The notes: generated by a model not told the origin, from the letters alone. A stretch of DNA of 64,000 nucleotides from Escherichia coli (GCF_011045215.1 NZ_CP049201.1), one strand, 5' to 3'. Positions 21,716-35,789 are shown, counted from the stretch's first letter. Made by a program: numbers and translations.

Positions 21716-24238
21716 ATGAGTCTGACAGATACACTTTCAAAAACTATCTCTGTTTCCCTGAATCGTTACCATTTAATTATTCCCTCCTGCCCGTCACCAC
21801 TGGATGTTGAGCATTTCAGCGGCAGGGAGGAGATGAGTCAGACCTATTATTACATCATCAATTTTACCAGTACTGACAACGACCTGGATGCCGGGCTGCT
21901 GCTGCGTAAATCAGCCACATTTACAATGGGTACGGGAGGGCTTAAGGAGCAGGTGAGCCAGAAAGTAGTACATGGTGTCATTACAGATTTTCGCCGTATA
22001 TCGGGCTCCGCCGACCAGGCAAAATACCAGGTGATACTGGAACCATTTATTAAACTACTGGACAGGCAGCATCGTTCTCACCGATTTTTCGTTAACAAAT
22101 CGGTGCCGGAGGTGGTGACAGAGGTTCTCCAGGAGCACGGTCTGAAAGGCTGGGAGTTTGAGTTCCGTCTCAAAAAAACGTATCCGAAGCGTGAACAGAT
22201 TAACCAGTATCAGGAAAGTGACCTGCAATTTATTCAGCGTTTGCTGGCTGAAGTGGGGATTTTTTATTTTTTCACCCTGCAACCGGACACGCAGACGGAA
22301 GTGGTGCATTTTGGTGACAGCCAGGCAGCGCTGACGTTTGATAAGACGCTGGCGATAAACAGTCCGTCCGGAATGAATGATAACAGAGCGGATTCAGTGT
22401 GGGGGCTGAATGTGACGCACAATGTGGCAGAGGCTAGTGTCACCACAAAGGCTTATAACCATCGTGAAGCACAATATCTGTTGCAGTCCGCCCCGGCAGA
22501 CATGACGCATGGTGATGGTGACGGAATTAACTATGGTGAGGTGTACCACTACCATTTCCGTCATCTGGAACGGGGGGATAAAATCGACCCGGTGCCGGAG
22601 ACGGCCAATTTTTATGCCCGCCTTGGTCATGAACGCTATCTGGCGGAGCAGGTACGGATAACCGGTAACAGTACAGACGCCACGCTGGCACCTGCTCAGG
22701 TTCTGACTATCACCGACAGTCTTCCGCCGACGTTGCCTGCGCTGCTGCGCAATCCGGTGTTGCTTACCTGTGTCGGTTTTTCTGCAAGTCGCAAGGATGC
22801 CCTGCAGGTTGTACTGAAGGGCGTTCCTTACAGTGAAGTTATCTGCTGGCGTCCTCCTTTACTGCCCCGTCCGAAAGTTACCGGTACCATGACGGCCCGT
22901 GTGACCAGTGCAAAAGAAGGGGATATCTACGCCTGGCAGGATGCATCAGGTATGTACCGGGTGAAATTTGATGCTGACCGTGATGATAAAAATCCAGGAC
23001 AGGAAAGTATGCCGGTACGTCTGGCCAAACCCTACAGTGGTGATGCTTATGGTTTTCATTTTCCGCTGATTCAGGGAACGGAAGTGGCCATTGCTTTTGA
23101 GGAAGGTGATCCGGATCGTCCCTATATTGCGCATGCCCTGCATGATTCACGTCATGTTGATCACGTTACCGATAAGAACGGTACGCGCAATGTTATCCGT
23201 ACGCCAGCAAATAACAAATTGCGAATGGAGGATAAGCGCGGCGAGGAGCATATCAAGCTCAGTACCGAGTATGGCGGTAAGACACAACTTAATCTTGGCC
23301 ATAACGTTGATGAGGAGCGGGTGGTTAGAGGAGAAGGTGCAGAGTTGCGCACTGATGATTGGGTGGCAATTCGGGGGGGGAAAGGGATTTTATTAAGTGC
23401 CGACGCTCAACCAAATGCTGATGGTGTAATGCTTGATATGCATAAAGCTATACAGCAGTTGGAACATGCTCTTGCTCTTGCAAAAAGCCTCGGCAAAGCA
23501 GCTGAGACAGCAAAAGCAACTTCGGCAGATTCAGATAGCCAGTCTATTTTGAAAAGTGCGCTGTCCGGGTTGCAAAAACCAGGGATATTAGCACATTCAC
23601 CTATGGGAATTGGTGTGGTAACTCCAGAAGCAGTACGGATTGCTTCTGGAAATCAGAGTGTAGGAATAGTTTCTGGTCGTAATACGGATATTACTGCAGC
23701 TCAGTCAGTAACTGTTGCGGCATCGAATTCTGTCAGCCTATTTGCGCAAAGTGCGGGGATGCAACTTTTTGCAGGGCAGGGCAAAGTGGATGTGCAGGCT
23801 CAGGGAGATGCGCTGAATCTCCAGGCACTAAAGGACGTCACAGTTACTAGTAATCGTGGTAGTGTAACGTTAAGCGCTAGTAAGGAGTTAACTCTTGTTT
23901 GTAATGGTGCTTACATCAAGATCAGTGGCGGAAATATCGAACTTGGATGTCCAGGTAATATTCTGCTTAAATCTGCGAATGTGCAAAAAATGAGAGCGGC
24001 AAACTTAAATCTATCTCCTCAGGTGTTGCCTAAAGGATTCAAGGGAGGATTTACAATAACTAATCAGGATACGGGGGAAGTGATGCCGTACATCCTTTAT
24101 AAGATAACTACCGCAGAAGGTGATGTTTATTCAGGTACAACAGATAAACTTGGCAATACCATGCCAATTTATACAGCGTCGCCATCATTAATGAAAATTG
24201 AGTTTCCTCTAAGCAGTGAACAAGGAGGGGCATTATGA
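21716..24238 (+). CDS. vgrG: T6SS spike protein VgrG (TssI) with C-terminal extension
   Basis: 840 aa, longer than a minimal VgrG; gp27/gp5-like N-terminal region then repeat-rich beta-prism region and an extra C-terminal tail of about 100 aa. Confidence 0.9.
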   Translation: MSLTDTLSKTISVSLNRYHLIIPSCPSPLDVEHFSGREEMSQTYYYIINFTSTDNDLDAGLLLRKSATFTMGTGGLKEQVSQKVVHGVITDFRRISGSADQAKYQVILEPFIKLLDRQHRSHRFFVNKSVPEVVTEVLQEHGLKGWEFEFRLKKTYPKREQINQYQESDLQFIQRLLAEVGIFYFFTLQPDTQTEVVHFGDSQAALTFDKTLAINSPSGMNDNRADSVWGLNVTHNVAEASVTTKAYNHREAQYLLQSAPADMTHGDGDGINYGEVYHYHFRHLERGDKIDPVPETANFYARLGHERYLAEQVRITGNSTDATLAPAQVLTITDSLPPTLPALLRNPVLLTCVGFSASRKDALQVVLKGVPYSEVICWRPPLLPRPKVTGTMTARVTSAKEGDIYAWQDASGMYRVKFDADRDDKNPGQESMPVRLAKPYSGDAYGFHFPLIQGTEVAIAFEEGDPDRPYIAHALHDSRHVDHVTDKNGTRNVIRTPANNKLRMEDKRGEEHIKLSTEYGGKTQLNLGHNVDEERVVRGEGAELRTDDWVAIRGGKGILLSADAQPNADGVMLDMHKAIQQLEHALALAKSLGKAAETAKATSADSDSQSILKSALSGLQKPGILAHSPMGIGVVTPEAVRIASGNQSVGIVSGRNTDITAAQSVTVAASNSVSLFAQSAGMQLFAGQGKVDVQAQGDALNLQALKDVTVTSNRGSVTLSASKELTLVCNGAYIKISGGNIELGCPGNILLKSANVQKMRAANLNLSPQVLPKGFKGGFTITNQDTGEVMPYILYKITTAEGDVYSGTTDKLGNTMPIYTASPSLMKIEFPLSSEQGGAL

Positions 24239-26145
24239 GTGAGTCAAAAACATCTGCTGTAGGAACATTCAGTAAAGCCCATGCTCCTGCGCAAAAGAAA
24301 TGCTGGATTGAAATTCAGCTGGTTGATGAGAATGATAACGCTGTAGCTAATATGCCATGGCGAGGGGAGAATGAAGCTACTCGTGATAAAGTTATTGAGC
24401 CTTATAGCGGAGTTACTGATTTAGATGGTATTTTGAGGATCGATGATTTGCTTCACCCAGATCTTACTCTTTTTGTTGAAGCTCAACCACTTGTTGACGA
24501 AATGGAGCATAGACCTTTAAGTATAGAGAGAACATGTTCCTATTCGATGAAAAATTCACCAGTAACTGTTGATAAGCGGACCAATAATATTTGTTATTAT
24601 GTAGTTGTCGGTCAATTGTGCGATAAAGCTCCAAGTATACCTGGTTGGAATAGTAAAGAATTACCTGCCTTTCATTTTCCCGATCGTGATTTTTCAGGAC
24701 TAACTATTTCAAATGCGTACTTTAATTCGAGAGTTATAGTAAAAGTATGTCCATTTAGAGCATGGAATTTACTTCTTCATCATGCAAAGGATTACTCTAT
24801 TGTAAATGCGTTTAATTTGGGGCTTTTAGCTGAATTTGTTTATTCTGACAAAGAAAAAATCCTGTCCTTTTTTAATGAGCAGTGTCAAGATTTATCTAAA
24901 GTTCCTAGTATGCTCTATGAAACCATTTCTGTTGATGTGCCGTTTAGAGAACGTTATGTAAATCCAGTATTTCTTGATACTACAGAAGGTGATTTTGGAG
25001 AAGGGGGGACCCAGCTTTTCTTCGTCAGCAATTTGACTAAGCTATTAGTCGGCTGGAGAGGTACTGAGCCAGATAAACTAGCAGATCTTATTACTGATGG
25101 GGCATTTAGGCCGGTGCCATGTCCAGATATAGTGCCATCAGGTCATTGTCACAAAGGTTTTTTAGATGCATTTAATTTAGTTGGAAAAAAATTCAGGGAC
25201 CAACTCAAACAAATTCAGAGTTTGTCGAGTGGCCGTGAATTATTTATTGCAGGACATAGCTTAGGCGGTGCATTAGCTCTAATTCATGCTGCTGTGTTGC
25301 GTGATTATCAACCAATAATCTATACATATGGAATGCCGCGAGTATTTACGGCATCGGCTATTAATAAAATTAAAAATATTTCTCACTATAGACACGTTAA
25401 TGATTCAGATTCAGTAACAAGCATTCCACCGGAGTTAGAGTTAGATAATAAACTCTATGATCTTTGGGGACCTTACGGTGTTGTCTATGGATTTGTTGGT
25501 TCTGTTTTGGCTATGGGAATTCAAGGCGCAGGAATAAAGTTTGGTGATCCTTATTGGCACCATGGTAGCACTGTCTGCTTTTTTAAGGTTGAGCAGTCTA
25601 TTGTTAAGCGTTTAAAAAGAATTATGCCGCTTATAGGCATGGATGTTAAAAAACCATATATATCAATAAGGGAGATCTCATTTGACAAATGTAAGCTATA
25701 TCTTGTTCCAGATCTTAATGAGAAAATGTTTTGCGCTACAGCAGAGGAGCAAAATAATTTTGTGAAAAGTTTGTCCCCTGAAAGTTTAAGATGCTATTTT
25801 CCTAAAAATAGTAATCCAGAACTTGATTCTTGGACAAATCCAATAAATCATTCCATGTCAAACAAATACATGCCTTTTATTAATAATGAGCTGATTGAGC
25901 TAACAGATCCTGAGCGACCAATGGAAAGAAAACTGAATAGGAAAAAATTTTCAATTGCTGTTGATAATGCAGCGAAGTTAACAGAAAGCACTTCGAAGCA
26001 TGAGCTGGAAAGAAATAAGAACTTTTTATTGTTGCAAGATATGTTGCCAAAAACATTAGAAATATCAAAGTCAGAAAATAACTGGGTGAATGCATTGATT
26101 AGATTTAAAAATAGTGCAAAGGAAGAGTATGAGAATATTAATTAA
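24235..26145 (+). CDS. Putative T6SS phospholipase/lipase effector (class-3 lipase-like, GHSLGG nucleophile motif)
   Basis: 636 aa; start overlaps the vgrG stop; GHSLGGALALIHAA at about 25252..25290 is a GxSxG alpha/beta-hydrolase nucleophile elbow; AT-rich relative to the core genes. Confidence 0.75.
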   Translation: MSESKTSAVGTFSKAHAPAQKKCWIEIQLVDENDNAVANMPWRGENEATRDKVIEPYSGVTDLDGILRIDDLLHPDLTLFVEAQPLVDEMEHRPLSIERTCSYSMKNSPVTVDKRTNNICYYVVVGQLCDKAPSIPGWNSKELPAFHFPDRDFSGLTISNAYFNSRVIVKVCPFRAWNLLLHHAKDYSIVNAFNLGLLAEFVYSDKEKILSFFNEQCQDLSKVPSMLYETISVDVPFRERYVNPVFLDTTEGDFGEGGTQLFFVSNLTKLLVGWRGTEPDKLADLITDGAFRPVPCPDIVPSGHCHKGFLDAFNLVGKKFRDQLKQIQSLSSGRELFIAGHSLGGALALIHAAVLRDYQPIIYTYGMPRVFTASAINKIKNISHYRHVNDSDSVTSIPPELELDNKLYDLWGPYGVVYGFVGSVLAMGIQGAGIKFGDPYWHHGSTVCFFKVEQSIVKRLKRIMPLIGMDVKKPYISIREISFDKCKLYLVPDLNEKMFCATAEEQNNFVKSLSPESLRCYFPKNSNPELDSWTNPINHSMSNKYMPFINNELIELTDPERPMERKLNRKKFSIAVDNAAKLTESTSKHELERNKNFLLLQDMLPKTLEISKSENNWVNALIRFKNSAKEEYENIN

Positions 26146-26890
26146 GAACATGATGTACATCTTTTCTTTTTTTTTGTTAGGGTGTGATAAAAATGAGTCA
26201 TTGAATCCTCCATCCAATGGTGAAATGGTTTCTGTAATTGCAAAGATGCCAGCGGGCAGTAAAATATTGCCATTGGAAATTATGTATCGTTCAACCACTT
26301 GCTTGAAGAGTCGTAAAGATTCAAATGGAGGTATAGTAAAAGAACCAGGATATTATTTTGTCAAGAAAGAATTCAATTCTGTATCAGACGATAATATATT
26401 TAATCTGAAGATTCCACGTGATGGTGGAGGGCAGTGTAACTGGGAGTTAAGCAACATAACGTTAGGGTTCTATTTAAAAGAACTTCCTTCAGGTAAAGAT
26501 GAAAAGAGTGAGAATATACCAATTAAAGAAATTATTGTGTTTGATGATAATTCACCTCAGCGGCTAAGTGGAACATACGAGATTATTAATGGAGATGTTA
26601 CACTGAAAGAGAATTACTTTCCTTTAATTACAAAGCGCAGGAATAGCAATACCTTATTGGAATATTCCATTGTCAGGTCTTCACCAGATGTGATTTATAA
26701 ATCAACATCGGCAAAAAAAGTTATTTTTGAACCAAGGATTCATTTTTCAAAAGTTTTACGCGCGACAGAACCGACAGGGCAAAAAGTCGGAGTGTATATG
26801 TCGGTGTTGTATCCTGATGGAACTATCGAGAATGGGCCATATTTCCCTAATTACAAAAAACTTCAGTTCCTTGAGAGAGGTAATGATTGA
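26129..26890 (+). CDS. Lipoprotein, putative immunity protein for the lipase effector
   Basis: Signal peptide with lipobox MRILIKNMMYIFSFFLLGC; overlaps the effector 3-prime end; same low GC. Confidence 0.6.
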   Translation: MRILIKNMMYIFSFFLLGCDKNESLNPPSNGEMVSVIAKMPAGSKILPLEIMYRSTTCLKSRKDSNGGIVKEPGYYFVKKEFNSVSDDNIFNLKIPRDGGGQCNWELSNITLGFYLKELPSGKDEKSENIPIKEIIVFDDNSPQRLSGTYEIINGDVTLKENYFPLITKRRNSNTLLEYSIVRSSPDVIYKSTSAKKVIFEPRIHFSKVLRATEPTGQKVGVYMSVLYPDGTIENGPYFPNYKKLQFLERGND

Positions 26891-27493
26891 TTATTTATAA
26901 TTAATTTCTGTATTTTTAGATTGAATGTTTTATGTATCTGTGAATGCGTGGTGTTCCGAATCGGATTTTGCGTTATTATTTCTAATGTCGTAATTAAAGA
27001 GAAAGAGTTTAGCTAAAACGATTGTTTTCATTCTAAACATAGAGTAAATATGAAGTGTTTTTTATCAAGTCTACGAACTCTCAGTATTATGTTTTTTGTG
27101 CCGATTATATTTTTCATCTTTCAGTACGAATGCTGGAGTAAGTGATAGTTTTGATTTGCTTATAATTGGGGGATTGTTTCTCATTATCTTGGTTAGCAAA
27201 TCCATTTATTATAGAAGTAATCAAGATAAATAATTTATTATATTTATAATTGTCCCTGGTGTCATTTTTATTGTTCATTTCTTTCTTAGAAGTTAAAGGC
27301 ATTATTGTGAAGGTTGGGAAGGGAAAATGTTAATAATGTTTTATGGCTTGGGATATTGGATGTGAGAGTCATGCTTCATTTAGCATGATGTTAACTCAAA
27401 ATATCGACATTCATTAGCGTAAAAATTAAAATAATGAATATCTCTGATTAATTGTTGTCTTAATTTATATCGTCTTATAAAGTTGAGGTGTGG

Positions 27494-27760
27494 ATGTCAA
27501 GTAGTTTTGTTTTGCTGGGTGATAAAACAACTCATGGTGGCGAAGTGATCTCAGCTTCTTCAACCATGATTGTCGATGGTAAAAAAGTAGCTCTTGTCGG
27601 AGATATGGTTAGTTGTCCTGTTTCCGGACATGGTACTAATCCTATTGTGGAGGGCTCTCCTGAATGGATATCTGATGGAAGAGCTGTTGTGATTGATGGA
27701 TGTAAATGTCTGTGTGGGTGTAAGGTTATATCCAGTGCACCGGAATGTGCAATAGGATAA
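27494..27760 (+). CDS. PAAR-domain spike-tip protein
   Basis: About 88 aa, Gly/Cys-rich with PAAR-like motifs (VSCPVSGHG, GCKCLCGCK); GAGG RBS before the ATG. Confidence 0.8.
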   Translation: MSSSFVLLGDKTTHGGEVISASSTMIVDGKKVALVGDMVSCPVSGHGTNPIVEGSPEWISDGRAVVIDGCKCLCGCKVISSAPECAIG

Positions 27761-27763
27761 AAC

Positions 27764-28912
27764 ATGGGATGGAGCAGAACAAAATCATTATCAACAGAAT
27801 TACCTCATAAACCATCAATGATGTTGTGGTTTATGACAGGGGCATTTATGGCTGTTGTTGGTGCTCTGTTGTTTATTATCCGGGCATCAGGATATGTGAA
27901 AGCATTAAATAATTTCAGTATCTGGTGGCTTGCATTGACTCCTCCGGGGAGCTGGTTTTTCCTGTTTTGCCTGCGACACTGGCAGTGGAGCAACCAGATG
28001 GATGAACATTTGTTTCTTAAAAAAGAGGGGGAGTATGCTCAGAAACAGTGGGAATCCTGGGCCGAAAGGTATCTTGTTATTACTGCCAGTTGTGTTTATT
28101 TGCCTGATAAAATAACGGTAGCTACTCTTTGTGATGAATTGCCTCTGCAGTATGGCCTTGTAAAGAAAATAGATTATCTTTCTGACAGTGGGCATAAGGT
28201 TGAAGCCTCTTTACGTGTCTTGCTTAGGGAGATAACGGATAAATTTTGTCAGTTACCTGCCGCTCTCCCTGTAAATGTGACGCTGATAACCGATCAGCCT
28301 GATTCTGAAATCAGATCTGCTTTTGTTTCTGCATGGGAAGCGTTATTTCCCCAACGCGTCGTTCCTGACAATATTGAGGTTACTCCCGACTTTTCCATGG
28401 GGTGGGGTGATGAGCGTCTGAAACAACCAGTGCTGACTGTGGATTTGATACTGGTAATACAGCTTAATGGGGGAAATGCATACTCTGACGGACTGGCTGC
28501 ACTTTTGTTGACCAGCGATGATGTTGCGCAAAAATATAATCTGCCGCATTCAGCCCGTCTGCTACGCCCGATGTCGCTGGATATCAACAAGTTTAATGAT
28601 GAATTCACACTTTTCCTTGAAACCCAGACAGCTGCCTGTCGTACCGCTCGTGTACTGGGGGACTGTTATCACTGGGAAAAGATTGCTGCACCGCTGATGA
28701 CTATTGGAAACCAGTATGGTGCCGGATGGGAACCGTCCGGACGTATGTTACTGGAAAAATGGTGCGGTATCCCGGGACCTGCTGCTCCGTGGCTGCTTAC
28801 TGCTCTGGCAGCCGATCTGGTCTGTCTTGGTAATGATTCTCTCCTGACTTTATTCTCATCCGGAGAAGAACATTTTATCAGTACTGTTACATCAGGAAAC
28901 CAGAATGAATAA
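27764..28912 (+). CDS. T6SS-associated inner-membrane protein of unknown function
   Basis: 382 aa with two N-terminal TM helices; 3 bp after PAAR and overlapping the tssM start. Confidence 0.55.
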   Translation: MGWSRTKSLSTELPHKPSMMLWFMTGAFMAVVGALLFIIRASGYVKALNNFSIWWLALTPPGSWFFLFCLRHWQWSNQMDEHLFLKKEGEYAQKQWESWAERYLVITASCVYLPDKITVATLCDELPLQYGLVKKIDYLSDSGHKVEASLRVLLREITDKFCQLPAALPVNVTLITDQPDSEIRSAFVSAWEALFPQRVVPDNIEVTPDFSMGWGDERLKQPVLTVDLILVIQLNGGNAYSDGLAALLLTSDDVAQKYNLPHSARLLRPMSLDINKFNDEFTLFLETQTAACRTARVLGDCYHWEKIAAPLMTIGNQYGAGWEPSGRMLLEKWCGIPGPAAPWLLTALAADLVCLGNDSLLTLFSSGEEHFISTVTSGNQNE

Positions 28913-31900
28913 ACTGGCCTGTCTGTCTGGTCGCTTTGGGCGACCGGGGATTGTATTTATTGGTGTGGCTGCGCTCTGGTGGCTGATAACCCGATATGGA
29001 GCATATCTGGGGGCAGAAACACGCCGGGATCAAATACTACTGCTGATATTGCTGAGTCTGGGGTTGCTCTTTGTCTGTTACCTGCCTGTGATGAAAAAAT
29101 ATGTTCAGGAACTGACATATCGACGCAGGGCCCGTAAGGAGCAAAGGTTACCTGACGATGAAGAGCGACTGGCTCAGACGCCACCGCGCTATGTTACTGT
29201 TCAGGATATTCGTCATACTCTGCGGCGCCAGTATGGCAGATTCTGGGGACGTAAGATACGCATTCTGTTGATAACAGGTACCGCCTCTGAGGTTGAGTTG
29301 TTGACCCCGGGCCTGACAGAACAGTTCTGGCAGGAAGAGCAGGGGACATTGCTTCTCTGGGGAGGAGACCCCTCGCAGCCGGAAAACGCAGACTGGCTGG
29401 CTGCGTTACGCCGTCTGCGTTACCGGCCTGCTGATGGCATTGTCTGGGTAACTTCCGGACTGAGTGAAACATTATCCGCACCACTTACAGAAGATGCCCT
29501 TGACAGGGTTTCCCGTGCAGTCAGTTCATGTTGTGAGCGCCTTGGCTGGCGTCTGCCGCTGTATGTCTGGTCACTGCAGGAGAGTCCGGATGAGCGTGGG
29601 CGTATTACTCAGCCCGTGGGATGCCTTCTGCCGGCAGAATGTCGTTCTGACAAACTGAAAGCACAACTACAGGCCATGCTCCCCGGGCTTGTTACTCAGG
29701 GGATACAGCAGATATGCAGTGCCCCTCGGTATTATTTTTTGTTGTCGCTGGCAGAGCGATTCAGACGAAATATTGATGCTGTGGTGGAGCCATTATCCGT
29801 ATTACTCCGTTCATACCGTCAGTTGTTGCTGGCGGGTATTGTTTTCAGTCCGGCAACTGTCGGTGGTGAACGAAGTGTCAGACATCGCTGGCGAATGGAT
29901 AACCGCTGGGAGGCGTTGCCGGAGACAGTGCAGCAATTACCTGTCCGGCTACAGCCTTCCCGCACAGGTCATAACTGGCGCAGAAGCCTGACTGTTATGG
30001 CGGTCATACTGATGATGGCTCAGGGAACAGGAATGGTGGTTTCCTTTCTGGCAAACCGGAGTCTGGTTGCTGAAGTACAGGAACAGATTCGTCCAGTTCA
30101 GAACCAGCAACAGTCTCTTACAGAACGTCTGCAGGCGTTGCTGAATCTGCAGAAATCCCTGGCCCGCCTTCAGTATCGTGAGGAGCACGAGGCGCCATGG
30201 TACCTGCGGGCCGGTATGAATCAGAATGCAGACCTGCTCGCGGTCGTAATGCCTCTTTATGCACAAAATGCACATCTTTTACTGCGTGATGCCGCTGCTG
30301 CTCATCTTGAGCAGCAGCTCAGAATATTTATTCGTCTTCCTCCGGACAGCCCGCAGCGGGGGAAAATGGCAAAAGCCGCCCGTGACCAGCTCAGACTGTA
30401 TCTGATGCTGGCGCAACCGCAACATATGGAGTCCGCCTGGTTCAGTCGTACGCTCATGCGGGAATGGCCACAGCGTGACGGTGTGAGTGCCGGTTTCTGG
30501 CAGGCTAACGGCCCGACGCTGCTGGCGTATTATGCCTCCGGGCTTATTACCCATCCTCAGTGGAAGCTGACAGTTGATGAAGAGCTGGTCAGCCAGAGCA
30601 GGACTCTGCTGCTTCGCCATATGGGAACACAGAACAGCGATGCCATGCTGTATCAGAAAATGCTGGCACGGGTGGCACATCAGTTTGCGGATATGCGTCT
30701 GACGGATATGACCGGTGATACTGATGTCTCCCGCCTCTTTTTCACCGATGAAGTGGTCCCCGGTATGTTTACCCGCCAGGCCTGGGAAGAGGCCGTATTG
30801 CCGGCCATAGATACCGTGATTAATGAGCGTCGTGAAGAAATGGACTGGGTACTGACTGATGGCAGGCAGAAGACACCGTCACCGGTATCGCCGGAAGCAC
30901 TCAGACAGCGCCTGAAAACGCGCTATTTTGCTGATTTTGGTAATGCCTGGCTGAATTTTCTGAACAGTCTGCAGTTACGCCGGGCTCAGACGCTGTCTGA
31001 TGTGACAGAGCAGCTGACGCTGATGGCTGATGTGCGCCAGTCCCCCCTGGTTGCACTGATGAATACGCTGGCGGTTCAGGGGCGTACTGGTCAGCCCCGG
31101 GAAGCAGTTACTGATTCACTGGTTAAATCTGCCAGAAACCTGCTTTCACAGGAAAAACAGCCGGTGACAGCACAGGAAAGCCGGCTTCACGGTCCTCTGG
31201 CGACGACTTTCGGGCCGGTGCTTGCACTGATGGATAATCAGAACAACAGCGCGGATATGCTGAATCTGCAGACGTATCTGATCCGGATTACACAGGTTCG
31301 TCTGCGTCTGCAACAGATTGCCGGCTCTTCTGACCCGCAGGCCATGATGCAGATGCTGGCACAGACAGTATTGCAGGGGAAATCGGTTGATTTAACTGAT
31401 ACCCGGGATTACGGCAGCCTGGCCGCTGCCGGACTCGGACAGGAGTGGTATGGCTTCGGACAGACGGTCTTTGTTCGCCCGATGGAGCAGGCGTGGCAGC
31501 AGGTTCTTACACCCGCGGCAGAAAGTCTGAATACCCGGTGGCGTACTGCGGTGGTGGATGGCTGGAATAATGCATTTTCCGGGCGTTATCCGTTTAAAAA
31601 TGTCAGCAGCGATGCTTCACTTCCCCTGCTGGCAAAATACCTGAATACGGACACGGGACGTATTGCCCGTTTTCTGCAGAATAACCTGAGTGGTGTGTTG
31701 CGCAGGGAAGGCAATCGCTGGGTACCGGATACCATTAATACCCGGGGGCTGACATTCAACCCTGCGTTTCTGAAAGCCATCAATACCCTGAGTGAAATAG
31801 CAGATGTGGCGTTCACCACAGGTAACGCGGGGCTGCATTTTGAGCTGCGACCGGGAACTGCTGCCGGTGTGATGCAGACGACGCTGATAACCGATAATCA

Positions 31901-32294
31901 GAAACTGATTTATGTTAATCAGATGCCGGTATGGAAGCGATTTACCTGGCCGGCTGATACGGAAGCACCTGGCGCCAGTTTAAGCTGGGTAAGCACTCAG
32001 GCCGGTACCCGTCAGTATGCAGACCTGCCGGGAAGCTGGGGGCTGATACGTCTGCTTGAGATGGCCCGACGGAAAGCCGCACCGGGCGTTGCCAGTGGCT
32101 GGAGCCTGAGCTGGCAGGCGCAGGACGGTCGTATGCTGAATTACACACTGCGAACTGAAGCGGGGGAAGGGCCGCTTGTATTGCTGAAACTCCGCAATTT
32201 TGTTCTGCCGGAAACGGTTTTCGAACTCTCCGGTACGTCAGCGTTTACAGGCAATGACGAAGATGCCGGGGATTCCGTGGAGGAGACTGACTGA
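28905..32294 (+). CDS. tssM: T6SS membrane-complex protein TssM (IcmF-like)
   Basis: 1129 aa with N-terminal TM helices and large periplasmic region; size and position match IcmF/TssM. Confidence 0.88.
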   Translation: MNKLACLSGRFGRPGIVFIGVAALWWLITRYGAYLGAETRRDQILLLILLSLGLLFVCYLPVMKKYVQELTYRRRARKEQRLPDDEERLAQTPPRYVTVQDIRHTLRRQYGRFWGRKIRILLITGTASEVELLTPGLTEQFWQEEQGTLLLWGGDPSQPENADWLAALRRLRYRPADGIVWVTSGLSETLSAPLTEDALDRVSRAVSSCCERLGWRLPLYVWSLQESPDERGRITQPVGCLLPAECRSDKLKAQLQAMLPGLVTQGIQQICSAPRYYFLLSLAERFRRNIDAVVEPLSVLLRSYRQLLLAGIVFSPATVGGERSVRHRWRMDNRWEALPETVQQLPVRLQPSRTGHNWRRSLTVMAVILMMAQGTGMVVSFLANRSLVAEVQEQIRPVQNQQQSLTERLQALLNLQKSLARLQYREEHEAPWYLRAGMNQNADLLAVVMPLYAQNAHLLLRDAAAAHLEQQLRIFIRLPPDSPQRGKMAKAARDQLRLYLMLAQPQHMESAWFSRTLMREWPQRDGVSAGFWQANGPTLLAYYASGLITHPQWKLTVDEELVSQSRTLLLRHMGTQNSDAMLYQKMLARVAHQFADMRLTDMTGDTDVSRLFFTDEVVPGMFTRQAWEEAVLPAIDTVINERREEMDWVLTDGRQKTPSPVSPEALRQRLKTRYFADFGNAWLNFLNSLQLRRAQTLSDVTEQLTLMADVRQSPLVALMNTLAVQGRTGQPREAVTDSLVKSARNLLSQEKQPVTAQESRLHGPLATTFGPVLALMDNQNNSADMLNLQTYLIRITQVRLRLQQIAGSSDPQAMMQMLAQTVLQGKSVDLTDTRDYGSLAAAGLGQEWYGFGQTVFVRPMEQAWQQVLTPAAESLNTRWRTAVVDGWNNAFSGRYPFKNVSSDASLPLLAKYLNTDTGRIARFLQNNLSGVLRREGNRWVPDTINTRGLTFNPAFLKAINTLSEIADVAFTTGNAGLHFELRPGTAAGVMQTTLITDNQKLIYVNQMPVWKRFTWPADTEAPGASLSWVSTQAGTRQYADLPGSWGLIRLLEMARRKAAPGVASGWSLSWQAQDGRMLNYTLRTEAGEGPLVLLKLRNFVLPETVFELSGTSAFTGNDEDAGDSVEETD

Positions 32295-33892
32295 TGGCTT
32301 CCATTCATTCGCTCCTCAGTGCATGCCAGACGACACCCCGGGATGTGGCTGAACCGGCTCAGGTGCGTATTGTGCTGTGGGATAAATGGCTTGCTCCCGT
32401 GACGCCAGATAATCCCGCAGGTGATGATGCGGGGTACGATGATGATTTTCAGCAGATGCGTGAAGAGGTCAATAAATTCTCCGGAGCCGATGCCGGAATA
32501 GTCAGCCAGCTTGCAGAAAAATTACTGACCACCAGAACCAAAGATATCCGGGTGGCGACCTGGTATATCTGGGCCCGTCTGCGGCAGGATGGTGAAAAAG
32601 GTCTGGCCGACGGTCTGGAGCTGCTGACCGGTTTGTTGCAGCGTTTTGGAGAGCACCTGCATCCACAACGGTCACGGGCCAGGAAGGCGGCGCTGGAGTG
32701 GTTATGCAGCGCCCGCATACTGGACAGTCTGTCTCTGTATCCGGAGGTGGTGAAGGCGGATACCCTGCGCATTGCCGGGGCGCTGTGGCTGGCAGAACAG
32801 ACCTTTACGGATGAGGCTTCCGCCCCGGTGCTGAACGGGTTATATCAGGCACTTGAAAATCGCCTGATGAAGGCCGGTGGTGTTGATGCAGTGGTGCCTC
32901 AGGAGGCTGCCGCGCCGGCACCGACGGTAACATCCGGCAGCGTCACGGCACTATCTGCCATCACCTCCGGACAGGAACTGCTGTCACAGGCTCGTGTTCT
33001 GGCAAAATATCTGCGTGACCAGCCTGAGGGCTGGCTGGCGGCTCATCGGCTGATGAAAAGCGTCCGGCATGACACGCTGCATCAGTTACCGCCGTTATCT
33101 GCTGATGGACGGACCCGTATTGCCCCACCGGGGCCGGACCGGCGTGCGTCACTGAAACGGTTGTATCTGCAGCAGAACTGGTTGTCACTACTTGAGCAGT
33201 GTGACGATATGTTTGCCCGGGGAGCCAGTCATCTGTGGCTGGACCTGCAGTGGTATATTCATCAGGCGCTGTTGCAGACCGGAAAAGAAAATTATGCTGC
33301 CATTATTCAGTATGACCTGAAAGGATTGCTTCTGCGCCTGCCGGGGCTTGAGACACTGGCTTTTAACGACGGCATGCCGTTTGCCGATGACGTGACGCTG
33401 AGCTGGATACAGCAGCAGGTGATGGAGTGTGGTGAACGCTGGGCGGAAGAACTTTCTGTAACGATAACGGCAGCTCCCGGAGATAACGACATTTTATCTC
33501 TTGAGCCGGAAGCCCTGCAGATTGCGGATAATGAAGGAACAGAAGCCGCTTTAAGCTGGTTACAGGCACGTCCCGGTATTCAGTCTGACCGCAGCAACTG
33601 GCTACTGCGCCTGTTGATGGCCCGTGTTGCCGAACAGACTGGAAAAAATGACCTTGCCCTGCATCTGCTTGCGGAGCTGGATGAACGTGCAACCCGGCTG
33701 ACCCTGTCACAATGGGAACCTGAACTGGTATTTGAAGTAAAAGCCCGCCGCCTGAAACTGTTGCGTATGAAGTCCGCAAAAACTGAAAGTGACAGAGTGC
33801 GTCTGCAACCTGATATGGAACATCTTCTTGCCGGGCTTATTGCTATTGATGCTGCCAGAGCTGCTGTGTTGTGCAATCCGGGAAGTTCATGA
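32294..33892 (+). CDS. tssA: T6SS protein TssA (ImpA N-terminal domain)
   Basis: 532 aa; N-terminal VTPDNPAGDDAGYDDDFQQMREEVNK is the ImpA_N signature. Confidence 0.8.
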   Translation: MASIHSLLSACQTTPRDVAEPAQVRIVLWDKWLAPVTPDNPAGDDAGYDDDFQQMREEVNKFSGADAGIVSQLAEKLLTTRTKDIRVATWYIWARLRQDGEKGLADGLELLTGLLQRFGEHLHPQRSRARKAALEWLCSARILDSLSLYPEVVKADTLRIAGALWLAEQTFTDEASAPVLNGLYQALENRLMKAGGVDAVVPQEAAAPAPTVTSGSVTALSAITSGQELLSQARVLAKYLRDQPEGWLAAHRLMKSVRHDTLHQLPPLSADGRTRIAPPGPDRRASLKRLYLQQNWLSLLEQCDDMFARGASHLWLDLQWYIHQALLQTGKENYAAIIQYDLKGLLLRLPGLETLAFNDGMPFADDVTLSWIQQQVMECGERWAEELSVTITAAPGDNDILSLEPEALQIADNEGTEAALSWLQARPGIQSDRSNWLLRLLMARVAEQTGKNDLALHLLAELDERATRLTLSQWEPELVFEVKARRLKLLRMKSAKTESDRVRLQPDMEHLLAGLIAIDAARAAVLCNPGSS

Positions 33893-34025
33893 GATGTCTG
33901 AATTATATTCATGTGTAATCTGATTAATGAAATCCGGCCTGCAGTTCAGTTCGGACGATTGTTTGAAGTATGGTTGAAGTCAGAGCGCGAGTCTCCGGAA
34001 CAGTTAGCTTTATTCTGAGAAGATA

Positions 34026-35789
34026 ATGGACGATTTAACCCTGCGTTATTTTGACGCTGAAATGCGTTATCTGCGTGAAGCCGGAAAGGCGTTTGCACAG
34101 GCTCATCCCGATCGGGCGGCGATGCTGGATCTCGATAAAGCGGGTACGCCTGATCCCTGCGTGGAGCGCCTGTTTGAAGGTTTCGCCTTTTCCATGGGAC
34201 GACTGCGCCAGAAAATCGACGATGATTTGCCGGAGCTTACTGAAAGTCTGGTCAGTATGCTCTGGCCTCATTACCTGCGTACTATCCCGTCCCTGTCGGT
34301 GGTGGCACTGACTCCCCGGTTATCCGTCATGAAAATGGCTGAAACCGTACCAGCCGGACTGGAAGTGACTTCCCGCCCTGTTGGCCCCGGAAATACAGTC
34401 TGTCGTTACCGTACCACCCGGGCCATACCACTGAATCCACTGGCAGTGGAGAAGGTTGTTATGACGACGGAGCCGGACGGGCGTTCAGTGTTGAAAATAG
34501 GTTTTGCCTGCAGTGAACTGGCTGACTGGTCTCAGGTCGATTTGCATCGTCTGAGCCTGTATCTGGCAGCAGAAGCCCCGGTCAGCAGCACCCTTCATCT
34601 GATGATGACAAAGCGTCTGGCTGCGCTGTATCTGAGGCTGCCGGGAAATGATGAGCGGATCCGCATTGACGGATGGTTTTCTCCCGGTGGTTTTGCAGAA
34701 GAAGATCGGCTGTGGCCGAAAGGTGACAGTGCTTTCAGTGGGTATCAGTTATTGCTGGAATATTTCACCTTTCGGGAAAAGTTTATGTTTGTTCATCTGA
34801 ACGGACTGGAGAATGTTTCTCTGCCGGCAGGTATTTCCGGATTTGATCTTGAGGTGGTGCTGAGTCAGCCCTGGCCGGCAGATTTACCTGTGACAGACGA
34901 TGCCCTGTGTCTGCATTGTGTGCCGGTGATTAACCTTTTTACGCTTGAAGCCGATCCACTCATCATCAATGGGCTGGAGAGCGAATACCTGCTGCGCCCG
35001 AAGCGTCTGCAGGATGGGTATACGGAGATATATTCCGTGGATGCGGTGACGGGCTCCGGGCGAACCGGCAGTGCAGAGTACGTGCCTTTTACCAGCTTCC
35101 GTCACCGTGGGGGAATGCTGCGCCATGATGCACCCGAACGTTATTATCATACCCGGGTGAAGCGGGGTGTCACGGGGATGTATGACACATGGCTTATCCT
35201 TGGCGGTCAGCGGTGGGAGGCGGATCGGATGCCGGAGCGGGAAACGCTTTCATTACGTATTACAGGTACCAATGGTCAGCTTCCCCGTCGTGCGTTGCAG
35301 AGTACGCTGCTTGATCGGTGTGAACAGGTACTGCAGACCCCGGTCAGTGTACGTAATCTTTGTAAACCCACGCTACCGGTTTATCCGCCGACAGAAGATC
35401 GTTTTCACTGGCGGGTGATGAGTCATCTGGGGACAGGATTTCTTAACATGCTGAGCAGTGCGGAAGTGCTGCGTGGCACGCTGGCGCTTTATAACTGGCG
35501 GGACGATGAACTTAATCACCGTCGGCTTGATGCCATTCTGGCTGTACAGCATCATCGTATTCAGCGTTTTGAAAAGGGTTTTCTGCTCCGGGGGCTTGAT
35601 GTGGAGGTAACTCTTGATGGCAACGGGTTTGCCGGAGAGGGAGATATTCACCTGTTTGGCGAAATGCTCAACCGTTTCCTGGCCCTGTACGCCGATATGA
35701 ATCAGTTCAATCAGCTCACACTGATTGTTCAGCCTGAAGGAAAATGCATCCGGTGGAAAGAAAATCACAATCCGCGCCTGCCCGGTTAA
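34026..35789 (+). CDS. tssF: T6SS baseplate protein TssF
   Basis: 587 aa; MDDLTLRYFDAEMRYLREAGKAFAQAHPDRAAMLDL start typical of TssF. Confidence 0.85.
   Translation: MDDLTLRYFDAEMRYLREAGKAFAQAHPDRAAMLDLDKAGTPDPCVERLFEGFAFSMGRLRQKIDDDLPELTESLVSMLWPHYLRTIPSLSVVALTPRLSVMKMAETVPAGLEVTSRPVGPGNTVCRYRTTRAIPLNPLAVEKVVMTTEPDGRSVLKIGFACSELADWSQVDLHRLSLYLAAEAPVSSTLHLMMTKRLAALYLRLPGNDERIRIDGWFSPGGFAEEDRLWPKGDSAFSGYQLLLEYFTFREKFMFVHLNGLENVSLPAGISGFDLEVVLSQPWPADLPVTDDALCLHCVPVINLFTLEADPLIINGLESEYLLRPKRLQDGYTEIYSVDAVTGSGRTGSAEYVPFTSFRHRGGMLRHDAPERYYHTRVKRGVTGMYDTWLILGGQRWEADRMPERETLSLRITGTNGQLPRRALQSTLLDRCEQVLQTPVSVRNLCKPTLPVYPPTEDRFHWRVMSHLGTGFLNMLSSAEVLRGTLALYNWRDDELNHRRLDAILAVQHHRIQRFEKGFLLRGLDVEVTLDGNGFAGEGDIHLFGEMLNRFLALYADMNQFNQLTLIVQPEGKCIRWKENHNPRLPG

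Follow-up and report, generated by a model that had tools for sequence, protein, structure and literature searches.

The gene that lies between PAAR and tssM in a type VI secretion system (T6SS) cluster of Escherichia coli encodes a putative membrane protein of 382 residues, here called X. We tentatively, and with somewhat less than even confidence, interpret X as an accessory scaffold without catalytic activity, specific to a particular lineage, which is tethered to the membrane complex at its cytoplasmic base and may assist the PAAR-capped spike in docking or loading. Its open reading frame (ORF) occupies positions 27764-28912 of the plus strand in a stretch of 64,000 nucleotides (GCF_011045215.1, NZ_CP049201.1), which is called the window in the following. 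This reading is favored by the core-like conservation of X, its nearly constant position between PAAR and tssM, its independence of any particular cargo, and its co-variation with PAAR and with the C-terminal part of VgrG.

All coordinates and junctions given in a preliminary description of this DNA hold: an ORF of 382 residues begins 3 bp past PAAR, whose stop codon (TAA, 27758-27760) is followed by the spacer AAC and then by the ATG of X, and it overlaps tssM by 8 nucleotides, the tssM start (ATG, 28905) lying within the last 8 nucleotides of X (ATGAATAA). From this overlap, co-translation of X with the membrane-complex genes can reasonably be inferred. The start of PAAR is most likely the ATG at 27494 and not the GTG at 27488 picked by the ORF lister; it yields 88 residues, the length published for EC042_4537 (PMC10715212). 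X is a real gene and not a chance ORF, because a word-index search returned 251 relatives of 380-386 residues across Enterobacterales, a profile search through all of 1.84 billion representative proteins returned 224 clusters (50% identity), and the median dN/dS is 0.21. Thus, X is under purifying selection, about twice as relaxed as that on PAAR and TssM (0.10). Nearly all full-length cluster representatives measure 370-400 residues, in addition to a subgroup of 460-496 residues. With just 224 representatives among so many proteins, the family is taken to be restricted to a single lineage of T6SS.

A scan of one genome per species yielded 79 loci with X, from about 48 enterobacterial and about 30 Pseudomonas genomes. 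The family ranges over Enterobacterales, Pseudomonas, Orbaceae and Caballeronia, with divergent members in Gilliamella and Orbus (both Orbaceae) and in the betaproteobacterium Caballeronia arvi. A 404-residue 'hypothetical protein' encoded immediately 5' of tssM in the T6SS-1 variant of avian pathogenic and extraintestinal pathogenic E. coli (APEC/ExPEC) is a bona fide member: it matches a hidden Markov model of the divergent subgroup with an E-value of 8e-46 and aligns over its full length to the A1 alignment of X sequences in hhalign. This APEC-type form occurs in 996 of 5,426 complete E. coli genomes and the allele of the window type in 54-57; together, about 19% of complete E. coli genomes contain a member of the family. 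A divergent member of 391 residues (locus L014, 8001-9176; also L015) stands alone in an AT-rich genome, with glnD on one side and an acyltransferase/acyl-ACP synthetase-like gene on the other; the core motifs of this member have degenerated, and no T6SS gene lies within 8 kb. The subgroup of 460-496 residues (L009, 8001-9419; L013, 218-1624; L097, 8001-9437) has an extra C-terminal transmembrane (TM) hairpin, i.e. four TM helices with the thiolase-like domain in between.

The window is a Sci-1/T6SS-1 cluster, and the DNA of the ORF is 99.1% identical to that of E. coli 042. The counterpart of X in this strain, EC042_RS24240, is annotated as 'hypothetical protein' and shares 98.7% amino acid identity with X. 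Because it is located between the PAAR gene EC042_4537 (PMC10715212) and the TssM gene EC042_4539, EC042_RS24240 is equated with EC042_4538; judged by sequence and position, X is the orthologue of this gene of the Sci-1 T6SS of enteroaggregative E. coli (EAEC). RefSeq names a 99.1%-identical gene in NZ_OZ547038.1 'KPHS_23130 family T6SS system protein', and likewise an APEC-type relative in NZ_CM194011.1. In K. pneumoniae HS11286, KPHS_23130 is flanked by KPHS_23120 (PAAR) and KPHS_23140 (tssM) (PMC6580597), and in the literature it appears only as a locus tag within lists of virulence genes (PMC12997785). A full-text literature search revealed no paper on X and no description of an X mutant, and a study of the adjacent PAAR gene from 2023 never mentions X (PMC10715212). 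Since a RefSeq family name exists, while the literature contains only mentions of the locus tag, X is catalogued yet uncharacterised. The preliminary description had treated X as an unnamed, T6SS-linked membrane protein and had proposed a domain search. Neither the single sequence nor a profile of X matched any family model of Pfam (E<=0.1) or NCBIfam r20, or any entry of PADLOC or the PDB sequences, which, together with the neighboring tssM, bears out this assessment. X is found within T6SS clusters of one lineage and matches no Tss model, as is characteristic of a Tag-type accessory gene.

For the analysis of gene neighborhoods, ORFs were called in all loci and labelled with the T6SS proteins of the window, and truncated genes were rescued by tblastn. 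All loci were gathered by searching for X; they describe its surroundings and are no guide to whether X is present in all clusters of this subtype. In 71 of the 73 assessable enterobacterial and Pseudomonas loci, tssM follows X immediately, the two genes overlapping or lying at most ~76 nucleotides apart. The same adjacency is present in Gilliamella (L010), in the APEC variant (L095) and in the main cluster of the subgroup with four TM helices (L097), where a member of 478 residues is part of the complete order TssBC-VgrG-Tle3-Tli3-PAAR-X-TssM-TssA-TssF. PAAR is located immediately 5' of X in 79 of 84 assessable loci, with a stop-to-start spacer of exactly 3 nucleotides in 61. Both exceptions to the adjacency of X and tssM are relics: L042 retains a C-terminal TssM remnant of 20 residues right behind X, and in L044 the vgrG...PAAR-X module has been duplicated in tandem, with X frameshifted. 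A PAAR-X pair that convincingly lacks tssM occurs only in an orphan vgrG island of Caballeronia (L009). The orphan islands L009, L042, L044 and L054 had hinted at PAAR as the only conserved partner of X. This idea was weakened by the tblastn results (tssM in L054, the remnant in L042, the duplication in L044) and by the APEC variant, in which X adjoins tssM without an adjacent PAAR; here, a PAAR-toxin fusion sits after tssA. In this variant (APEC O2-211; L095, 11620-13351), the PAAR-domain protein after tssA has 468 residues and is followed by a gene of 110 codons, and the two look like a PAAR-toxin/immunity pair.

The predicted topology of X is that of a membrane-anchored cytoplasmic protein. 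TM1 is strongly hydrophobic (Kyte-Doolittle hydropathy up to 2.3); TM2 is rich in Trp and Phe around a central PPG, has a hydropathy of ~1.3, which is under the cut-off of 1.4, and forms a helix in the AlphaFold model. This model, built from an alignment of 37 sequences, has a predicted local distance difference test score (pLDDT) of 84 and a predicted TM-score (pTM) of 0.76, and consists of helices at residues 19-42 and 53-100 and an alpha/beta domain at residues 101-377. Hydropathy (for TM1) and the modelled helices (for both) agree with the two N-terminal TM helices of the preliminary description, and its large soluble domain reappears as a confidently folded unit. Family-wide counts of lysine plus arginine average 2.2 in the N-terminal tail, 0.8 in the loop and 2.5 after TM2, and the soluble domain contains between two and nine cysteines. 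Because of this charge distribution and these cysteines, the soluble domain is strongly predicted to be cytoplasmic, with both termini inside.

A Foldseek search with the model retrieved 569 chains at E<=1e-3, and 50 of the 50 listed possess a thiolase-like fold. On the basis of the model, the assignment of the domain to a thiolase/ketosynthase-like fold is firm. Tla3 attains the top query TM-score (0.52), yet ranks only 24th by E-value; hence, a specific kinship of X to Tla3 is only suggestive. Within A1, the residues S241, D242, S251, D252, D253, R265, R268, P269 and M270 are invariant. No Cys or His is invariant across the 37 sequences; only H262 is nearly so, and it is gone in divergent members. 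The core motif (YSDGLAALLLTSDDV...ARLLRPM) is not retained in the APEC, Caballeronia and L012 subgroups, where its R-P pair alone survives. W96 and W99 are near-invariant even in the divergent subgroup, and W3, W96/W99, the R-P pair and GxPGP..PWL are all that these three subgroups share. Because there is no invariant Cys or His and the strongest motif is not kept in the divergent subgroups, a conserved catalytic site in X is unlikely, and the loss of catalytic residues is, like topology and fold, strongly predicted.

Among the known systems closest to X is Tla3 (PA0259; DUF2875 'type VI lipase adaptor', PDB 8yz3) of the H2-T6SS of P. aeruginosa, whose crystal structure resembles the modelled fold of X. 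Tla3 is a soluble cytoplasmic adaptor, which binds the lipase Tle3 and the TTR domain of VgrG2b (Berni et al. 2019, PMC6560169), and Tle3/Tli3 is the pair that makes use of it (PMC6560169). In contrast to the soluble Tla3, X carries a TM hairpin at its N-terminus, to which some of its relatives add another at the C-terminus; also unlike Tla3, X lies inside the core cluster beside tssM and is tied to no single cargo family. In L097, the cargo is Tle3/Tli3, there is no DUF2875 gene, and X closes the cassette. Membership of X itself in DUF2875 was considered and rejected at the sequence level, for want of any profile or sequence match.

A second comparison concerns the thiolase-like IPR040771 proteins, which adjoin the gene of a PAAR-like DUF4150/PIPY tip in DUF2169 type A clusters, where, according to transposon data, the delivery of effectors depends on each gene; thiolase-like proteins are found repeatedly as accessories of the spike tip (PMC11883445). 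In the pef cluster of P. mirabilis and the PA0097 locus of P. aeruginosa, as in the X loci, a protein with a thiolase fold is encoded beside the gene of the spike-tip cone. These clusters, however, combine the DUF4150/PIPY tip with DUF2169, DUF6484 and armadillo-like partners, whereas the X locus has a canonical PAAR (PF05488) and none of these partners; neither DUF2169 nor DUF4150 is reported among the called genes of those X loci for which precomputed Pfam hits exist. The separation of X from IPR040771 follows gene context and description. From beta-ketoacyl synthases, chain-length factors and thiolases, X differs in the lack of catalytic Cys/His, the smaller domain (~280 residues), the membrane anchor and the T6SS context. 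By analogy, X thus seems to add a membrane-anchored variant to the catalytically dead proteins of thiolase fold that recurrently serve the spike tip; as far as our searches show, a link between its fold and known T6SS adaptors is unreported so far.

The N-terminal part of TssM and X share a layout in which a cytoplasmic domain of ~300 residues comes after two TM helices, and their genes are adjacent and overlapping. The cytoplasmic domain of TssM has been described as having an NTPase-like fold, from which the thiolase-like fold of X differs. The idea that X is a split or paralogous N-terminal domain of TssM was ruled out by this difference, by the lack of sequence similarity between X and TssM (BLASTP E 0.14), by the absence of a TssM-sized protein among the 150 listed matches of the profile search for X (224 clusters), and by the full length of the tssM gene in the window (1129 codons for amino acids).

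A comparison of the window with E. coli 042 separates X from its cargo. The window encodes a Lipase_3-family protein of 636 residues and a lipoprotein of 258 residues, whereas E. coli 042 carries Tle1 and two copies of Tli1 at this position (L001, 13977-19699). VgrG is 70% identical between the two, while PAAR reaches 95%, X 98.7%, TssM 97% and the flanking genes 95-100%. It looks as though the cargo module has been swapped, with breakpoints inside vgrG and between the immunity gene and PAAR. Furthermore, a clustering of the genes between vgrG and PAAR reveals that single clades of X accompany several unrelated cargo families, three to four in the case of one clade: Lipase_3 in most loci, but also Tle1, a LysM-containing protein, a Pyocin_S-domain protein with DUF6392 partner genes, and a 761-residue protein of unknown family with FGE-sulfatase-like partner genes. 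X is retained across at least five cargo families, and the clusters of Rouxiella possess no cargo gene between vgrG and X at all.

These observations bear on the proposal that X is a cargo-specific adaptor or chaperone similar to Tla3, which binds one cognate effector and loads it onto VgrG. The Tla3-like fold, the position of X at the end of a vgrG-effector-immunity cassette, the presence of Lipase_3 cargo in most loci and of Tle3/Tli3 in L097, and the co-variation of X with the C-terminal part of VgrG would fit such a role. We nevertheless consider it very unlikely, because unrelated cargos occur within clades of X and because X remains nearly identical between the window and E. coli 042 although both the cargo and the C-terminal part of VgrG differ; the Rouxiella clusters speak against it as well, and the Tle1 of EAEC binds VgrG directly (as cited in PMC6560169). 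The suggestion of the preliminary description that X might be an adaptor for PAAR-linked cargo finds no support for similar reasons: X is independent of the cargo, the essential PAAR protein of EAEC is reported to be uncoupled from the loading of toxins (PMC10715212), and no confident docking between PAAR and X is predicted (see below).

X tracks the phylogeny of the cluster, yet diverges faster than every core protein: between Pseudomonas and the window, amino acid identity is ~33% for X, 41% for TssM, 48% for VgrG, 50% for TssG, 53% for TssA, 65% for TssF and 68% for PAAR. In partial Mantel tests of the soluble domain of X, controlled for the periplasmic domain of TssM (2,000 permutations), the partial r is 0.70 for PAAR, 0.59 for the C-terminal and 0.05 for the N-terminal part of VgrG, 0.58 for residues 1-65 of TssM, and 0.24 for TssA. 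These 65 residues (the TM1-TM2 hairpin of TssM; window 28905-29100; 66 loci) show a partial r of only 0.03 with the rest of TssM, which suggests a recurrent recombination breakpoint just within the 5' end of tssM. The values fall with distance along the DNA (0.37 between PAAR and TssM 1-65, 0.32 between the C-terminal part of VgrG and TssM 1-65). The simplest reading is a recombining cassette composed of the C-terminal part of VgrG, cargo, immunity gene, PAAR, X and the 5' end of tssM, of which X would historically have been a part. The mirror-tree signal (p about 0.0005) was rejected as proof of physical contact, for linkage and physical co-evolution are inseparable in these data.

According to the model that we prefer, the N-terminal hairpin would anchor X in the inner membrane such that the N- and the C-terminus are both cytoplasmic, and the compact thiolase/ketosynthase-fold domain, devoid of catalytic residues, would face the cytoplasm and, like the thiolase-fold adaptor Tla3, serve as a scaffold for the binding of proteins. 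Because X is presumably membrane-tethered and made together with TssM, we infer its place at the cytoplasmic base of the TssJLM complex. There, it may help the PAAR-capped VgrG spike, whatever its cargo, to dock or load. This would be the step at which PAAR is required in EAEC, i.e. the recruitment of the baseplate: PAAR is needed for the recruitment of TssK, but not for the formation of TssM foci (PMC10715212). Upon firing, X would stay in the membrane.

Several points weigh against this model. An intact X-tssM pair without an adjacent PAAR exists in five loci (L004, L005, L022, L016 and L067). X shows little excess co-variation with the cytoplasmic domain of TssM (partial r 0.21), and its co-variation with PAAR and VgrG is better read as the mark of a recombination block than as binding, because the signal decays along the DNA and residues 1-65 of TssM track X but not the remaining TssM. 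As to the kinship with Tla3, DUF2875 (PF11394) matches neither X (Pfam, E<=0.1) nor 38 divergent members (E<=10), and the A1 profile does not match the sequence of 8yz3 at E<=10. Durand et al. are said to have assembled TssJLM in 2015 from tssJ, tssL and tssM alone, so that X would be unneeded to build the membrane complex. An AlphaFold fusion of PAAR and X through a (GGGGS)6 linker, with 36 locus-paired rows, reached a pTM of 0.62, whereas we had estimated beforehand ~0.62 for parts that are not mutually placed and ~0.73 for docked ones; this was a monomer model from a shallow alignment, without predicted aligned errors. Both PAAR and X were individually confident in this model, which gives no support to a direct binary complex of the two. 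A bolder version of the proposal, that X is an overlooked, functionally required, membrane-tethered thiolase-fold docking protein which couples the PAAR/VgrG tip to the cytoplasmic face of TssM in Sci-1/T6SS-1-type machines, strikes us as unlikely on present evidence.

Among the alternatives, a factor dedicated to TssM deserves most attention, i.e. a subunit of the membrane complex or a partner for insertion or stabilisation of an unusual TssM, with no direct role at the spike; we regard it as possible, if doubtful. The adjacency to tssM is the most universal feature of X, extending from the 71 loci to L010, L095 and L097, and it persists where PAAR is not adjacent (L004, L016, L067, L095). 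Moreover, the TssM next to X never has a recognisable N-terminal cytoplasmic Pfam domain, that of the window matches TIGR03348 only from position 429, and in both X and TssM a TM hairpin at the start precedes a cytoplasmic domain. Against this alternative, X shows little excess co-variation with either the cytoplasmic or the periplasmic domain of TssM, and it evolves with the swappable cassette and not with the tssM-tssA-tssF block. The Caballeronia island keeps PAAR-X and has no tssM, the reported reconstitution of TssJLM did without X, and the fold of X is like that of an adaptor and unlike any known part of the membrane complex.

An active thiolase-superfamily enzyme with an acyl or lipid substrate located at the membrane would account for the fold, the membrane anchor and the invariant Ser/Asp/Arg cluster of the enterobacterial and Pseudomonas group. 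This appears highly improbable, as a conserved catalytic set of Cys-His-His/Asn is missing, divergent members have lost the Ser/Asp motif but retained the synteny, and no gene related to acyl carriers or coenzyme A lies nearby. Still less credible is a role of X as an immunity protein or as a secreted effector whose helices insert into membranes. X does sit beside PAAR in a variable cassette, begins with TM helices and diverges more rapidly than the core proteins; but the loci lack an Eag/DUF1795 chaperone gene, and tssM overlaps X directly and leaves no room for a downstream immunity or partner gene. In addition, X is retained whatever the cargo, its orthology is traceable from E. coli to Pseudomonas, and its dN/dS of 0.21 shows no diversifying pattern. 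The features of the window and their coordinates are listed in Table 1.

Table 1. Positions of X, its predicted parts and neighboring genes in the window.
Feature	Position	Strand	Basis
X	27764..28912	+	ATG 27764, stop ending 28912, 382 aa; orthologue of EC042_4538 / KPHS_23130
N-terminal TM hairpin of X (TM1 residues ~19-42, short low-charge loop, TM2 residues ~53-72; predicted N-in/C-in)	27818..27979	+	hydropathy, AlphaFold, K+R counts
Conserved juxtamembrane cytoplasmic helix of X, residues 73-100 (F84, E88, W96, W99, R102), predicted	27980..28063	+	helix 53-100 continuous in the model; residues invariant or nearly so
Cytoplasmic thiolase/ketosynthase-like alpha/beta domain of X, residues ~101-377, predicted non-catalytic	28064..28894	+	AlphaFold and fold search
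Most conserved core motif of X, YSDGLAALLLTSDDVAxKYxLPHSARLLRPM, residues 240-270	28481..28573	+	residues invariant in A1
PAAR, usual gene 5' of X	27494..27760	+	88 aa; PF05488, E 2e-24; orthologue of EC042_4537
tssM, near-universal gene 3' of X	28905..32294	+	1129 aa; PF06761, PF21070, PF06744
Variable part of the cassette: vgrG (21716-24238), Lipase_3-family effector (24235-26145), lipoprotein immunity candidate (26114-26890)	21716..26890	+	ORFs and Pfam

Some further observations concern the neighboring genes. In the TssM of the window, the N-terminal cytoplasmic part (residues 1-~360; 28905-30000) has no Pfam match, and the protein matches TIGR03348 from profile position 429 on, with 254 bits versus the curated cut-off of 388 bits; RefSeq calls the TssM of this subtype 'ImcF-related family protein'. 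The absence of a recognisable N-terminal cytoplasmic Pfam domain extends to every X-adjacent TssM with precomputed Pfam hits. In the relic loci L042 (9164-9808) and L044 (9271-10307), a small ORF behind X shares the motif 'LTSGE.(A/E)LAKSVFG'; in L042 it is fused to the TssM remnant of 20 residues, and in L044 a lipoprotein-like ORF follows. Here, a toxin/immunity pair that has escaped annotation may have entered the junction of X and tssM. In Pseudomonas and enterobacterial loci (L016, L029, L080, L082, L086, L091), the lipoprotein gene after the Lipase_3 effector is often present in three to six tandem copies; the presumed immunity gene has expanded into an array.

Between the lipoprotein gene and PAAR, the window has a gap of 597 nucleotides with 28% GC (26891-27487), in which we found no ORF, no remnant of a lipoprotein gene and no similarity to the matching region of E. 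coli 042. A promoter scan upstream of PAAR gave a single sigma-70-like site (27404-27432, 10/12), ~55 nucleotides 5' of PAAR, and this number of sites equals the chance expectation. A hypothetical gene for 230 residues between tssA and tssF of E. coli 042 (L001, 26131-26823) is absent from the window, where a gap of 133 nucleotides is found instead (33892-34026); at the same tssA-tssF position, Pantoea (L002) has a gene for 236 residues with a precomputed YidX_N hit. Past the Sci-1 cluster of E. coli 042 (L001, 34964-36331) lies a gene with ImpA_N and VasL domains, which RefSeq presents as three pseudogene fragments and which we take to be the region of the published TagA.

The Sci-1 system of EAEC is the reference for the assembly of the T6SS membrane complex and baseplate, and yet no study has addressed X, whose gene lies there between two essential ones. 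The hosts of the family include the ST131 and APEC lineages of E. coli, Klebsiella, Enterobacter, Salmonella, Yersinia, Pantoea and many Pseudomonas; in Klebsiella, X is counted as a 'virulence gene' by its locus tag only. If X proves to be dispensable, an annotation gap in a model system is closed. If it is required, X would be a new component of the assembly pathway at the encounter of the PAAR-capped spike and the baseplate with TssJLM, a step that is poorly understood, and inactive thiolase-fold proteins would be a recurrent solution for the handling of the T6SS spike tip. Were X indeed a docking protein between the spike tip and TssM, it would represent a third, membrane-anchored class of thiolase-fold T6SS accessories beside DUF2875/Tla3 and IPR040771; the published assembly model of EAEC would then lack one player, as possibly would the phenotype of the ΔPAARΩKan mutant, whose retained cassette lies just 5' of X.

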